From the IMG/VR virus record IMGVR_UViG_650377940_000003, positions 1 to 23,322 of that record: DNA of 23,322 nucleotides; one strand, given 5' to 3'. The stretch is from a virus (lineage: Duplodnaviria; Heunggongvirae; Uroviricota; Caudoviricetes). Below, piece after piece: positions 1-3,570 of this stretch (positions are counted from its first letter, which is position 1; every line of letters starts with the position of its first letter). The notes below the pieces were generated by a model. That model searched no databases. It saw only the letters and a program-made list of their open reading frames with translations, and was not told the origin of the DNA. The position numbers and the translations under genes were made by a program.

Positions 1-753
1 TTATTCTGCTATTGAATCTAACACGGCGTTGACAATATCAAGCCCTATCTGTCCGGGAGCACTTGAGTCTCCAGCGCTGGCAAAAGTCATGGCGGAACCA
101 AATAGCTCTCCACACAATCTGCTGACAATGCCAAGCTTGCCCATGCTAATTGTGATAATAGGAGTAGCAAAATATTTATTTTTCATATCAACCGTAGCGG
201 CCAACAAAGTTAACACATCCGTGCTGTCGTGCGGCATAACTGCTACTTTTGGCAAATCAGCTCCAACTTGCTGCATTTTAACCATACGAGAAATGAGCTC
301 ATTTTTATCAGGCGTCTTCTGGAAATCGTGACTTGAACACACAACTACAACTCCAGAAGAATGTGCATTGTCTATCAGCTCACGAATATCATCTCTGGCT
401 GTAAAGAACTCAATGTCGATAAGGTCGGCACAGTCAGTATCTATTACCGTGTTGATGAAATCCAAATATTCTTTGTGGGTCAAAGACGCTTCTCCGCCCT
501 CTGCTTTGGTACGAAATGTCACCAGCAAGAGCTTGTCTTTCAGTGCCACACGAAGTTTTTGCAAGCAAGATACAACAGAATGTGCATCCATGCATTGCTC
601 AAACCAATCAACACGCCACTCTACACAGTCAATACGAAGCCTTGAAAACTCAAATGCGCGTTCTAAAATTTTTGATTCAGTTGTTTCAACGATTGGAACT
701 ATGACTTTTGGCCTGCCTTCACCGATATGACAATCACGCACAATAATGGACAT
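1..753 (-). CDS. aroD: Type I 3-dehydroquinate dehydratase (250 aa)
   Basis: Motifs VEWRVD, TFRTKAEGG, SSHDF (catalytic His), LPKVAVMP (Schiff-base Lys), SMGxxGxxSR and SAPGQI are all intact. Start moved from 768 to ATG 753 because GGAGG (760-764) precedes it. Confidence 0.95.
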   Translation of the reverse strand: MSIIVRDCHIGEGRPKVIVPIVETTESKILERAFEFSRLRIDCVEWRVDWFEQCMDAHSVVSCLQKLRVALKDKLLLVTFRTKAEGGEASLTHKEYLDFINTVIDTDCADLIDIEFFTARDDIRELIDNAHSSGVVVVCSSHDFQKTPDKNELISRMVKMQQVGADLPKVAVMPHDSTDVLTLLAATVDMKNKYFATPIITISMGKLGIVSRLCGELFGSAMTFASAGDSSAPGQIGLDIVNAVLDSIAE

Positions 754-779
754 AGAGTACCTCCACACATAATAAATAC

Positions 780-1816: not shown

Positions 1817-1852
1817 AATAAAAAATAAAGCCCGGCACACACGTACCGAGCT
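1817..1852 (-). terminator. Intrinsic terminator between the two holin-type genes
   Basis: Minus strand AGCTCGGTAC-GTGT-GTGCCGGGCT (10-bp stem, two G-U pairs) followed by TTATTTTTT. Confidence 0.75.
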
Positions 1853-2384: not shown

Positions 2385-2413
2385 TTGACAAAGATTATAC
2401 AATGTGATATTTT
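2385..2413 (+). promoter_or_regulatory. Sigma-70/SigA promoter oriented antisense to the late operon
   Basis: TTGACA (2385-2390), a 17-nt spacer, then TATTTT (2408-2413) with the extended -10 TGTGn directly upstream. Confidence 0.7.
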
Positions 2414-2419
2414 AAGTTC

Positions 2420-2494
2420 AGTCGTATCCGTCGAGCAGATATGACGAACTTTTCCATCGAGCTCCTGAGCCGCCATCTCAGGAGCTTCTTTTTA
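2420..2494 (+). ncRNA. Putative ~75-nt small RNA with two hairpins
   Basis: Downstream of the promoter: GTCGTATC-cgtcgagca-GATATGAC (extendable by AAGTTC/GAACTT), a linker, then a terminator hairpin with a U-tail. The start position is estimated. Confidence 0.6.
2460..2494 (+). terminator. Intrinsic terminator for plus-strand transcription
   Basis: AGCTCCTGAG-ccgccat-CTCAGGAGCT is a perfect 10-bp stem followed by TCTTTTTATTT. The minus strand has no U-tract after it. Confidence 0.8.
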
Positions 2495-2929
2495 TTTCCA
2501 ATAGTATCGAGGTTTTTCTTCACCAAACAGAATATGCCGAATCCAGTCATCCACGAAGATACAAATCATTGCGAGGAAGAACCACAACACAGTAAAGGGC
2601 AGACAGATTTGACCCAGCAGGTTGAATGGCAGGGAAGAGTAGTCCCAGATGTGTAAGCCCATCATCAGATTCAATGGAATGCCGACAACAAGCTCCATAC
2701 CAGTCACAAATAACGCACCAACAAAACCCTGTTCCCACATGGGCATTTCCCACGGAATATAATTATTCAACCCACCAATGACCACAAAGCAGATGCCGCC
2801 CACTACAGCCATAGTCCAGTGTGAGTGACCACGCCATAAAATTTCGATGCAATAATAAAGCGCCCCTCCTATCAGAAAGAGAAGCGCACATTTCAATAAT
2901 TCTTTATACTTCTTTACGATTTTGCTCAT
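2492..2929 (-). CDS. Membrane protein of the putative ABC transporter permease family (ABC_trans_CmpB-like)
   Basis: FLIGGALYYCIEILWRGHSHWTM, ELVVG and WDYSSLPFNLLGQICLPF match the family; about 4 TM segments. ATGA overlap with the upstream gene. Confidence 0.75.
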   Translation of the reverse strand: MSKIVKKYKELLKCALLFLIGGALYYCIEILWRGHSHWTMAVVGGICFVVIGGLNNYIPWEMPMWEQGFVGALFVTGMELVVGIPLNLMMGLHIWDYSSLPFNLLGQICLPFTVLWFFLAMICIFVDDWIRHILFGEEKPRYYWK

Positions 2930-3570
2930 TCAGCAACCTCCTTCGACCCGGCGGTCTCCAGATATTGCTCCAGAACAGGGTCGTAGTTGATTTCAATTGC
3001 ATCCAGCTCTTCCATGGTAGCACAAGCTTTAATAGCCAACTCCAACTCCTGCTGATGAGATACAAAGGGCTTCACATATGTACCAATTGCCAGTGCAAGT
3101 GCGGCCAGTTTCTCATAAGTCCATTCTACACATTCATCACCAGTTGAATTCCATGTCAGCTTGAACGATTGCCCGGCGGAAGCAGAGATTTGATACAGCG
3201 CCAAATTCGATGTCAGCAATGCTTGTTTTTCACTGGTGACGCTATAATACTTGCCATCCGTCCATTGGAGTGGATGAGAGGCAAGATATTCAGCGAGGGT
3301 TGTCTTAGATTCGGTGACTTTAACTTTTGCGGCCTCAGTTAGTTTAGCCTTCACTTCTTCTTCATTGACAATGATTTCACGTCCCGTCATTTTTGTAACA
3401 GTTTGAACCTCATCAATTTCCTGAACTTCAATATCAACGAACGGGAAGCTTTCTGGAATTGTTACGTTTTTGGGGATAATTGCCCAGCCATCTGGCACGG
3501 TGGTCTCCCACGGGCTGTTGCGGTTCTCGTGTGCACCGCTTGGAAGAGCAGTAATTTTGATTAGATTCAT
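2926..3570 (-). CDS. Tail-fibre-associated protein with DUF4376-like C-terminal domain
   Basis: Follows the fibre gene with an ATGA overlap. W...YSVT..Q....W...EW...L...I...V..Q...AI.AC.T.EELDAIEINY pattern. Confidence 0.6.
   Translation of the reverse strand: MNLIKITALPSGAHENRNSPWETTVPDGWAIIPKNVTIPESFPFVDIEVQEIDEVQTVTKMTGREIIVNEEEVKAKLTEAAKVKVTESKTTLAEYLASHPLQWTDGKYYSVTSEKQALLTSNLALYQISASAGQSFKLTWNSTGDECVEWTYEKLAALALAIGTYVKPFVSHQQELELAIKACATMEELDAIEINYDPVLEQYLETAGSKEVAE

Follow-up and report, generated by a model that had tools for sequence, protein, structure and literature searches.

A conserved, structured small-RNA gene oriented against the late operon just before the lysis genes in a Faecalibacterium prophage lineage

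In a gut prophage, the intergenic DNA that precedes the lysis genes carries a conserved, structured, non-coding RNA gene on the plus strand, with a promoter of the host type. The gene belongs to the stretch of 23,322 nt analyzed here and referred to as the window, with which the 151-kb IMG/VR provirus record IMGVR_UViG_650377940_000003 begins. The RNA family is new, while its layout, a self-contained prophage small RNA (sRNA) facing the late operon, is known from E. coli prophages and phage lambda. Regarding function, the tentatively preferred explanation, to which somewhat less than an even chance is given, is that an antisense RNA from the host-type promoter dampens late read-through into the lysis genes. 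Expression of the RNA, passage of the late transcript through the gap and an effect on lysis are inferred.

The last 8.3 kb of the record are 91–97% identical to Faecalibacterium chromosomes, and their G+C content is 50–55%, compared with 42.5% for the whole record. Since the record end matches these chromosomes and differs in G+C, the host was assigned to Faecalibacterium. Few beneficial gut bacteria are as abundant or as intensively studied as this genus, and its large prophages are uncultured. To our knowledge, no phage-encoded regulatory RNAs have been described for it.

According to the ORF map and the annotation, all real genes of the window are on the minus strand, which fits the initial annotation of the sRNA gene as the sole plus-strand unit in 23 kb. 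All the elements described there were found where it had placed them, and together they make up a self-contained small-RNA gene on the plus strand (Table 1). The unit is housed in a gap of 127 bp between the gene for a CmpB-like membrane protein and that for a 168-aa protein, which is followed by an LL-H-type holin and then an M15 endolysin. The ribosome-binding site of the 168-aa gene is at 2370–2375, and 9 nt separate it from the −35 box of the sRNA. On the other side, the start of the CmpB-like gene and the stop of the upstream tail-fibre-like gene share 4 nt, which suggests that translation of the two may be coupled. As in the sRNAs of the moron slot, the gene is thus a convergent small-RNA gene in the late region, ahead of the lysis genes. 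Its earlier description as the entrance to the lysis cassette is roughly right for the position, but the gene that comes next differs among relatives, coding for either the 168-aa or a 73-aa protein.

Table 1. Coordinates of the sRNA unit and its neighboring genes in the window.
Feature	Position	Strand	Details
aroD, type I dehydroquinase	1–768	−	annotation
M15 endolysin with peptidoglycan-binding domain	817–1464	−	
LL-H-type holin	1477–1842	−	
168-aa membrane/coiled-coil protein	1858–2364	−	ATG at 2364; first gene past the sRNA unit
Promoter, sigma-A/sigma-70 type	2385–2413	+	sequence scan, conservation in relatives
Predicted transcription start, A2420 or G2421	2420–2421	+	promoter geometry, 7–8 nt past −10
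5'-terminal hairpin H1, GTCGTATC/GATATGAC	2421–2445	+	8-bp stem, one G-U pair, 9-nt loop
Conserved box CGTCGAGC, consensus C-R-T-C-G-R-G-C	2429–2436	+	H1 loop
Single-stranded linker	2446–2458	+	13 nt
Intrinsic terminator	2459–2497	+	stem 2459–2487, T-tail CTTTTTATTT 2488–2497
CmpB-like membrane protein, 145 aa	2492–2929	−	PF06541, phrog_20274; convergent with the sRNA
Tail-fibre genes and 2267-aa tape-measure-size protein	upstream of CmpB-like gene	−	

The promoter consists of a −35 box TTGACA (2385–2390), a 17-nt spacer, a TG dinucleotide (2405–2406) and a −10 box TATTTT (2408–2413), which gives a match of 10/12 with an extended −10 (TGaTATTTT). The promoter match alone was at chance level, with 13 promoter-like matches seen in 6 kb and 11.7 expected. 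The strict form TTGACA-N14-TGnTAnnnT had only four matches on both strands of the 151-kb record, located at the sRNA locus and at 66288, 68676 and 147968. The sites at 66288 and 68676 are at the start of the plus-strand early block, and the one at 147968 lies in the G+C-rich record end, read as host flank. Since the strict form is rare, the RNA folds well below its shuffled controls and the unit is conserved as a whole, the unit was considered to stand above chance.

A palindrome of the CGGTTTAACCG kind is located within the spacer of the promoter at 66288, and a second TTGACA/TATAAT promoter, some 150 bp further upstream, has one in its spacer too; from the sequence, this arrangement resembles operator control. 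No palindrome of this kind is present in the spacer of the sRNA promoter. The initial annotation had proposed expression in the lysogen, and this appears plausible from a promoter that shares the host sigma-A consensus with the two early promoters of the phage but does not carry the operator-like palindrome seen at 66288.

The predicted RNA of the window is 77 nt long, with a folding energy of −27.9 kcal/mol and z = −5.3 relative to shuffled sequences. A second copy of the box, CATCGAGC, is present at 2455–2462 and is confined to the window's own sequence type. In the relatives, an additional middle hairpin occupies the position of the linker and the RNAs are 83–104 nt long. The terminator stem has 11 pairs, 6 of them G-C, with a loop of 7 nt, and its T-tail overlaps the stop codon of the CmpB-like gene (2492–2494). 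On the minus strand, this hairpin precedes GATGGAAAAG and has no T-tail; therefore, it can terminate transcription of the plus strand only.

Searches with the two flanking proteins gave about 110 IMG/VR contigs, mostly of 70–150 kb with some shorter fragments, and mostly from human gut samples. About 100 related gut phage contigs of 85–150 kb present the same unit layout on the same strand: behind TTGACA come a spacer of 17 nt and a −10 extended by TG, the hairpin begins at +1, and a long terminator and its T-tail close the unit. Using a simple pattern, the promoter was found at the same place and strand in 117 of 129 related loci, where TTGACA, the 17-nt spacing and TGnTA are constant and the spacer sequence is free to differ. 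The apparent misses were mostly positional or carried the −35 variant TTGAAA. The initial annotation had staked its proposal on the conservation of promoter and hairpins in relatives, and both are clearly conserved. The site of the unit is constant too, with the CmpB-like gene on one side and the leading gene of the lysis module on the other, be that the 168-aa or the 73-aa one, and the −35 box is 6–9 nt from the ribosome-binding site of the next gene in the types measured.

The transcribed parts fall into six types, A–F, which are barely alignable with one another. Type A (two hairpins, 77 nt) is represented by the window plus two close relatives, type B by about 40 contigs (about 97 nt, three hairpins) and type F by about 40 contigs (about 103 nt, three hairpins), with fewer contigs in types C, D and E. 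Every type folds, with z from −5 to −8, into a +1 hairpin and a long terminator that ends in a T-tail, in most cases with a middle hairpin between the two. The 5' hairpin begins at the predicted start in every type, and the T-tail is on the plus strand in all of them. The box C-R-U-C-G-R-G-C is constant in all six types, in or beside the loop of the 5' hairpin. The T, C, G, G and C of the box are invariant columns in the cross-type alignment, and the only other invariant positions of the transcript are two at the start of the terminator stem and two in the T-tail.

With respect to distribution, a megablast search of the region against phage records gave no match. When the 937-aa hub protein was used as a query, the only matches were distant Enterocloster phages and a single faecal phage without annotation. 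A signature for types C–F gave 53 matches among 2.9 million viral contigs, many of them overlapping contigs already collected, of the same phage lineage. In the covariance-model and signature searches, the sRNA family was confined to one phage lineage and one slot.

Conservation of the structure was evaluated with a covariance model built on type B alone. This model recovered the remaining types at the expected place and strand, with no further matches in the loci that were searched; the window's two-hairpin type fell below threshold, and its close type-A relatives scored 13–14 bits. Covariation among relatives, suggested in the initial annotation as a check, was supported, since 24 of 30 pairs changed on both sides (9/10 pairs in the 5' hairpin, 3/5 in the middle hairpin and 12/15 in the terminator). 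The pairing alignment comprised 34 distinct sequences, many of them close kin, and was fitted to the model's structure. Standard pairs occupied 95.6% of its pair cells compared with 75.7% in shuffled controls, none of which reached that value (0/500). When partners were slid, 35–54% were paired as opposed to 95.6% in the fitted alignment.

An alignment-free check gave the same strand. All 24 sequences fold better as the window's plus strand than as its reverse complement, with mean energies of −39.4 and −24.8 kcal/mol, respectively, and the same direction in the six types. The plus-strand folds contain 2–10 G-U pairs, while the complement contains 0–3. Since 24/24 sequences fold better on the plus strand and G-U pairs are in excess there, the plus-strand RNA is the selected object. 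This folding bias rules out a DNA inverted repeat or a hairpin of the late mRNA as the selected object. The locus therefore represents a structurally supported sRNA family with about 100 natural variants in six types, and the variants amount to a mutational series in which the stems vary and the 8-nt loop box stays constant.

The same data bear on whether the RNA itself is needed at all. The unit could be a DNA-level insulator against antisense read-in from the prophage end, or act purely by transcriptional interference with the RNA as a by-product, as a strong convergent promoter interferes without its RNA and the terminator would also halt plus-strand read-in. However, the 5' and middle hairpins are kept by compensatory or G-U-preserving changes on the RNA strand and the box is invariant, and neither hairpin upkeep nor the box is needed for interference or insulation. 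An explanation without a functional RNA is thus considered quite improbable.

A coding function of the gap was also considered. When gap ORFs of at least 15 aa were compared, none was conserved between types. They differ completely from type to type and are not hydrophobic, and a small protein or type I toxin encoded in the gap was discarded on these grounds. For the antitoxin mimic raised in the initial annotation, the lack of a conserved small toxin ORF counts neither for nor against it. A related possibility is that the RNA works as an antitoxin-like antisense RNA for the CmpB-like gene, in a manner similar to type I toxin–antitoxin systems, through the 3' end of the mRNA. The RNA is convergent with this gene and, in the window's type, its T-tail lies over the stop codon. 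Moreover, relatives without the RNA also lack the CmpB-like gene. In most relatives, nevertheless, the terminator ends about 40–60 nt before the stop, leaving no coding overlap. The CmpB-like protein, with 145 aa and a start overlapping the upstream gene, is not a small toxin with its own promoter, and no small hydrophobic ORF is conserved.

Chromosomal CmpB-like genes of Ruminococcus and Porcipelethomonas seemed to favor such an antitoxin role, as they have a conserved convergent consensus promoter 12–55 nt past the stop, but these promoters may just drive the divergent malQ through a long leader. The chromosomal loci were therefore discounted as support for pairing by the sRNA. Type I antisense RNAs are known in Firmicute prophages (reviewed in PMC6563280 and PMC6562991). 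The sRNA is similar to them as a stable, structured antisense RNA with a constitutive promoter, placed beside genes for membrane proteins that are lethal if untimely. It differs in that no hydrophobic toxin ORF of less than about 60 aa was found beside or under the RNA, and its neighbors are late proteins of 145 and 168 aa and a normal lysis module. Overall, an antitoxin-like role is regarded as improbable, only slightly less so than a unit without a functional RNA.

Regarding the preferred mechanism, the sequences of the window and its relatives were read for signals on the sense strand, and no conserved minus-strand sigma-A promoter was found in the gap. Since the gap has no conserved sense promoter or terminator, the mRNA of the lysis genes most likely includes a sequence complementary to the RNA, and a cis effect on late transcription that reads through into these genes is plausible on this basis. 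In such a mechanism, host RNA polymerase would transcribe the sRNA without phage factors, and the product would probably be present in the lysogen and in early infection. It would be a stable RNA of about 77 nt (83–104 nt in relatives), with a protective 5' hairpin and a strong terminator end, fully complementary to the late minus-strand stretch that is crossed on the way to the 168-aa gene, the holin and the endolysin. The RNA and head-on transcription would jointly lower lysis-gene expression for as long as late transcription is weak or absent. The RNA would pair with the read-through transcript about 55–135 nt upstream of the first lysis gene, after which the duplex may be cut or the downstream mRNA destabilized, and polymerases may collide within the overlap of about 100 bp. 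Strong late transcription would afterwards override the block.

Several results are consistent with this cis mechanism. The promoter is conserved though the spacers differ, six types share one architecture, the structure is selected on the plus strand with no ORF conserved, and the slot ahead of the lysis module is the same whichever gene follows. In addition, no trans target stands out in the phage genome. The relatives that do not carry the unit (L123–L127) have a sense-strand intrinsic terminator at the same junction, a few bases before the same ribosome-binding site. Since a sense terminator is placed there, the junction is a control point for entry into the lysis genes in this lineage. 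The sRNA thus sits where a prophage must silence its lysis genes, which makes the control of leaky lysis in Gram-positive anaerobes testable.

Precedents for the cis mechanism are lambda OOP and PAK_P4as15 (PMC12197685). OOP is a cis-acting RNA of 77 nt, and it promotes degradation of the cII mRNA in an RNase III-dependent manner (summarized in PMC12197685). Similarly, the sRNA is a short discrete RNA of about 77 nt, self-contained, with its own host-type promoter and intrinsic terminator, both kept in about 100 relatives, and it very probably lies opposite a long phage transcript. By analogy, action through a perfect duplex and RNase III would be expected for it. It has no sequence or Rfam relationship with OOP, however, and it would oppose an intergenic stretch before the lysis genes, whereas OOP opposes the 3' end of a regulator gene. 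Its host is a Gram-positive anaerobe, and its invariant loop box has no known counterpart in OOP. For PAK_P4as15, from the Pseudomonas phages PAK_P3/PAK_P4, a delay of lysis by repression of the endolysin gene has been proposed (PMC12197685, PMC5563952). This is also a phage antisense RNA proposed to restrain lysis via a lysis gene, but it is about 550 nt long, overlaps the endolysin gene itself and belongs to a virulent myovirus, while the sRNA has about 77–104 nt, would overlap the upstream untranslated stretch only and belongs to a temperate phage.

Some observations do not fit the cis mechanism easily. The duplex would end about 45–55 nt upstream of the ribosome-binding site, so direct masking is not expected, and no antisense-induced terminator was seen in the sense strand. 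The window also has a perfect TATAAT on the minus strand (2399–2394), not kept in relatives, which could privately drive the lysis genes and escape the overlap. Above all, a pure cis RNA needs no constant sequence, yet the 8-nt box is invariant across unalignable types, and this conservation points to a fixed partner. E. coli prophage sRNAs in the analogous slot, moreover, act in trans (PMC4104026).

The alternative is a trans-acting prophage sRNA, a moron-type cargo whose box would serve as seed for host or phage mRNAs or for a sponged host sRNA. This is doubtful in itself, although about nearly as likely as action in cis. Equally doubtful is its corollary that position and orientation reflect only a permissive insertion slot clear of the late transcript. 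A short invariant single-stranded motif plus a terminator, with the remainder free, is the pattern of a trans-acting sRNA, and the promoter looks constitutive, without an operator. Both variable positions of the box are A/G, and each of these bases would be able to pair with a U of a fixed target 5'-GCUCGAUG-3', which is a weak indication. Against a trans role, the box is neither C-rich nor anti-Shine–Dalgarno, as many Firmicute sRNA seeds are, and the family is limited to one phage lineage and one slot.

Target searches did not favor a partner in trans either, since no target was found in the 151-kb record. Exact complementary 10–12-mers occurred there at about chance level, and duplex scans of the phage ribosome-binding regions with four types gave nothing consistent, with none in the lysis module standing out. 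The strong matches of these scans were artefacts of spurious ORFs inside the cis site. The complement of the box occurs 8 times in 151 kb. In the late region and on the late-gene strand, it is found in this gap only, and the box was therefore rejected as a recurring late-promoter or activator site. In the host, a scan for GGAG-N2-8-GCTCGATG gave about 5 matches per genome with no sign of a common target and was uninformative. If the RNA does act on host transcripts, it would be the first sRNA-based lysogenic conversion in this group.

The closest parallels for action in trans come from E. coli. AgvB and AsxR (EcOnc01-03) are anti-sRNAs encoded by convergent genes in the lambdoid moron slot; they bind Hfq, and some sponge host sRNAs (PMC4104026). 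The Pas RNAs of EPEC are likewise prophage-encoded, Hfq-binding and trans-acting (PMC8550237). Like AgvB and AsxR, the sRNA has a short gene in the late region of a prophage, directed against late transcription and ended by a terminator, with a variable 5' part, a conserved remainder and presumed expression in the lysogen. Hfq binding and trans targets or sponging have been demonstrated in E. coli, whereas the Faecalibacterium sRNA is known from its sequence. Their slot is downstream of Q/PR', unlike that of the sRNA, between the tail-fibre/CmpB-like and the lysis genes of a Faecalibacterium prophage of about 140 kb. There is no homology between them, and Rfam gave no sequence or structure homology to the AgvB, AsxR and PasA/C families.

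The pattern of variation admits a further explanation, based on type-specific interference between phages. Here, the resident RNA would pair with the late transcript of a superinfecting relative and block its lysis genes, which is thought unlikely, and selection for escape would drive the cassette into discrete specificity types, which is just as unlikely. A precedent is the antisense RNA c4, by which the immunity specificity of P1 and P7 is determined. The RNA cassette is indeed a sharp island of divergence. Between the window and the relative L004, identity is 92–100% in both flanks and 12–76% across about 2395–2600, and the island spans the RNA and the final 100 nt or so of the CmpB-like gene, an extent that would also agree with pairing to the 3' end of that gene's mRNA. 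The six types are discrete and mosaic with respect to the alleles of the 168-aa gene (one allele is found with types A and B, another with types B and C), and the structure is kept throughout. Recombination mosaicism, however, yields divergence islands without selection, and what a lysogen would gain from blocking lysis alone is unclear. It is even less probable that the six types with their shared first-contact loop box are the product of an escape race, in which the resident prophage's RNA silences the lysis genes of incoming phages with the same cassette type. If true, such silencing would be an RNA-based layer of immunity acting on lysis and not on the lysis–lysogeny switch.

The initial annotation had also noted that the first 29 nt (GTCG...GAAC) loosely resemble a CRISPR repeat, and an RNA anti-CRISPR was considered, in which the 5' hairpin would act as a solitary repeat mimic soaking up Cas proteins. 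Of 12 regions retrieved, all from different genomes, 11 had a CRISPR array beside cas1. The host repeats are of three kinds, a main one of 33 nt, which we take to be type I-C, and others of 29 and about 36 nt. The RNA and the type I-C repeat both begin with GTCG and both contain a hairpin. The likeness did not withstand comparison, as the 5' parts of seven variants of the six RNA types aligned with the host repeats no better than shuffled controls (best shuffle fraction 0.03 among seven tests). The 25-nt hairpin was absent, allowing up to 3 mismatches, from 91 Faecalibacterium genomes. A CRISPR repeat is not expected to have varying stems with a constant loop, as the sRNA does. The best match to a CRISPR repeat in Rfam had 14 bits, compared with a gathering score of 39, and was on the wrong strand, over the terminator. 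With no repeat likeness, no such hairpin in the host genomes and a sub-threshold match on the wrong strand, an anti-CRISPR role was rejected as very improbable. A search of the 91 host genomes for CRISPR spacers matching the window brought up only homologous prophage genes; few candidates per genome were scored, and spacers could be missed.

Finally, the RNA was compared with known families and with host genomes. The Rfam search proposed in the initial annotation gave no family at its gathering score for the window, and a permissive search of 2300–2600 (301 nt) gave chance-level matches only, with a best E of at least 5.6. In Faecalibacterium genomes, the promoter-plus-box pattern retrieved only unrelated promoters, and the covariance model gave five weak matches, four of which were ordinary terminators. 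The fifth, L280, is a candidate sRNA with three hairpins that looks unrelated.

The window aroD looks like phage-borne cargo and not host flank. The endolysin is likewise followed by aroD in at least 38 related loci (among them L002, L004, L022 and L042), with 86–93% protein identity, while the Faecalibacterium chromosomal aroD is only about 65% identical to the phage gene, and both the phage-type and the Faecalibacterium-type copies are present in one MAG. The positions of the gene and its promoter are collected below with those of the terminators at the lysis module. As a separate observation, many Faecalibacterium contigs end at most a few hundred bases from their own aroD.

Coordinates of aroD, its promoter and the terminators at the lysis module
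Feature	Position	Strand	Remarks
aroD	window 1–768, within the region 1–816	minus	directly after the endolysin
aroD promoter, near-consensus (TTGACA-17-TATAGT)	window 808–780	minus	promoter scan
Terminator-like hairpin with T-run	window 1829–1852	minus (gene strand)	between the 168-aa gene stop and the holin start
Sense terminator of L123–L127	just upstream of locus position 3001	sense	

At the other end of the full 151-kb record (G000), between 140 and 151 kb (L261), G+C climbs from about 42% to 50–55%, and the final 8.3 kb show 91–97% identity to Faecalibacterium chromosomes. Therefore, the right prophage boundary was placed near 140–143 kb, with a prophage size of about 140 kb and a G+C content about 13 points lower than that of the host.

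Terminators were also found at the lysis module of five related loci (L123–L127), which combine a 68% identical homologue of the 168-aa gene with a different tail-fibre module and have neither the sRNA nor the CmpB-like gene. In these loci, an intrinsic terminator on the sense strand lies a few bases upstream of the ribosome-binding site that serves the opening gene of the lysis module; it consists of a G+C-rich hairpin followed by a run of 7–9 T in L123–L125 and L127, and differs in sequence in L126. The terminator-like hairpin in the window could be a second attenuation point directly upstream of the holin.

In Ruminococcus, Porcipelethomonas and further Oscillospiraceae, cellular CmpB-like genes were located on the chromosome (L132, L134, L135, L137–L139 and L141–L145). 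Each has a divergent malQ on one side; on the other side, several loci have an ORF of about 420–455 aa, identified as purA in L143. A conserved consensus promoter (TTGATA-N-TGyTATAAT), directed back into the CmpB-like gene, is found 12–55 nt beyond its stop codon in 11 of 16 chromosomal loci. This convergent promoter could drive an antisense RNA; alternatively, it could be a distant malQ promoter with a leader of about 500 nt spanning the entire CmpB-like gene.

The covariance model of the sRNA family gave a weak match on the minus strand of a Faecalibacterium genome (G004, contig 66; L280:1501–1601), considered a distinct candidate sRNA about 100 nt in length. Its promoter is TTGACG-17-TACAAT, and of its three hairpins the third is a long terminator; the TCGAGC box, the conserved loop box of the sRNA 5' hairpin, is absent from it.

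The junction between minus-strand late genes and plus-strand early genes in G000 lies at about 65.8–66.3 kb (L262:1800–2320), in a stretch of about 2 kb where all ORFs are short (<85 aa). Motifs of the TTCCTAGCA type recur within this stretch, which is probably the early promoter region under repressor control. In addition, it contains two strong tandem promoters, each with a palindrome of the CGGTTTAACCG kind.
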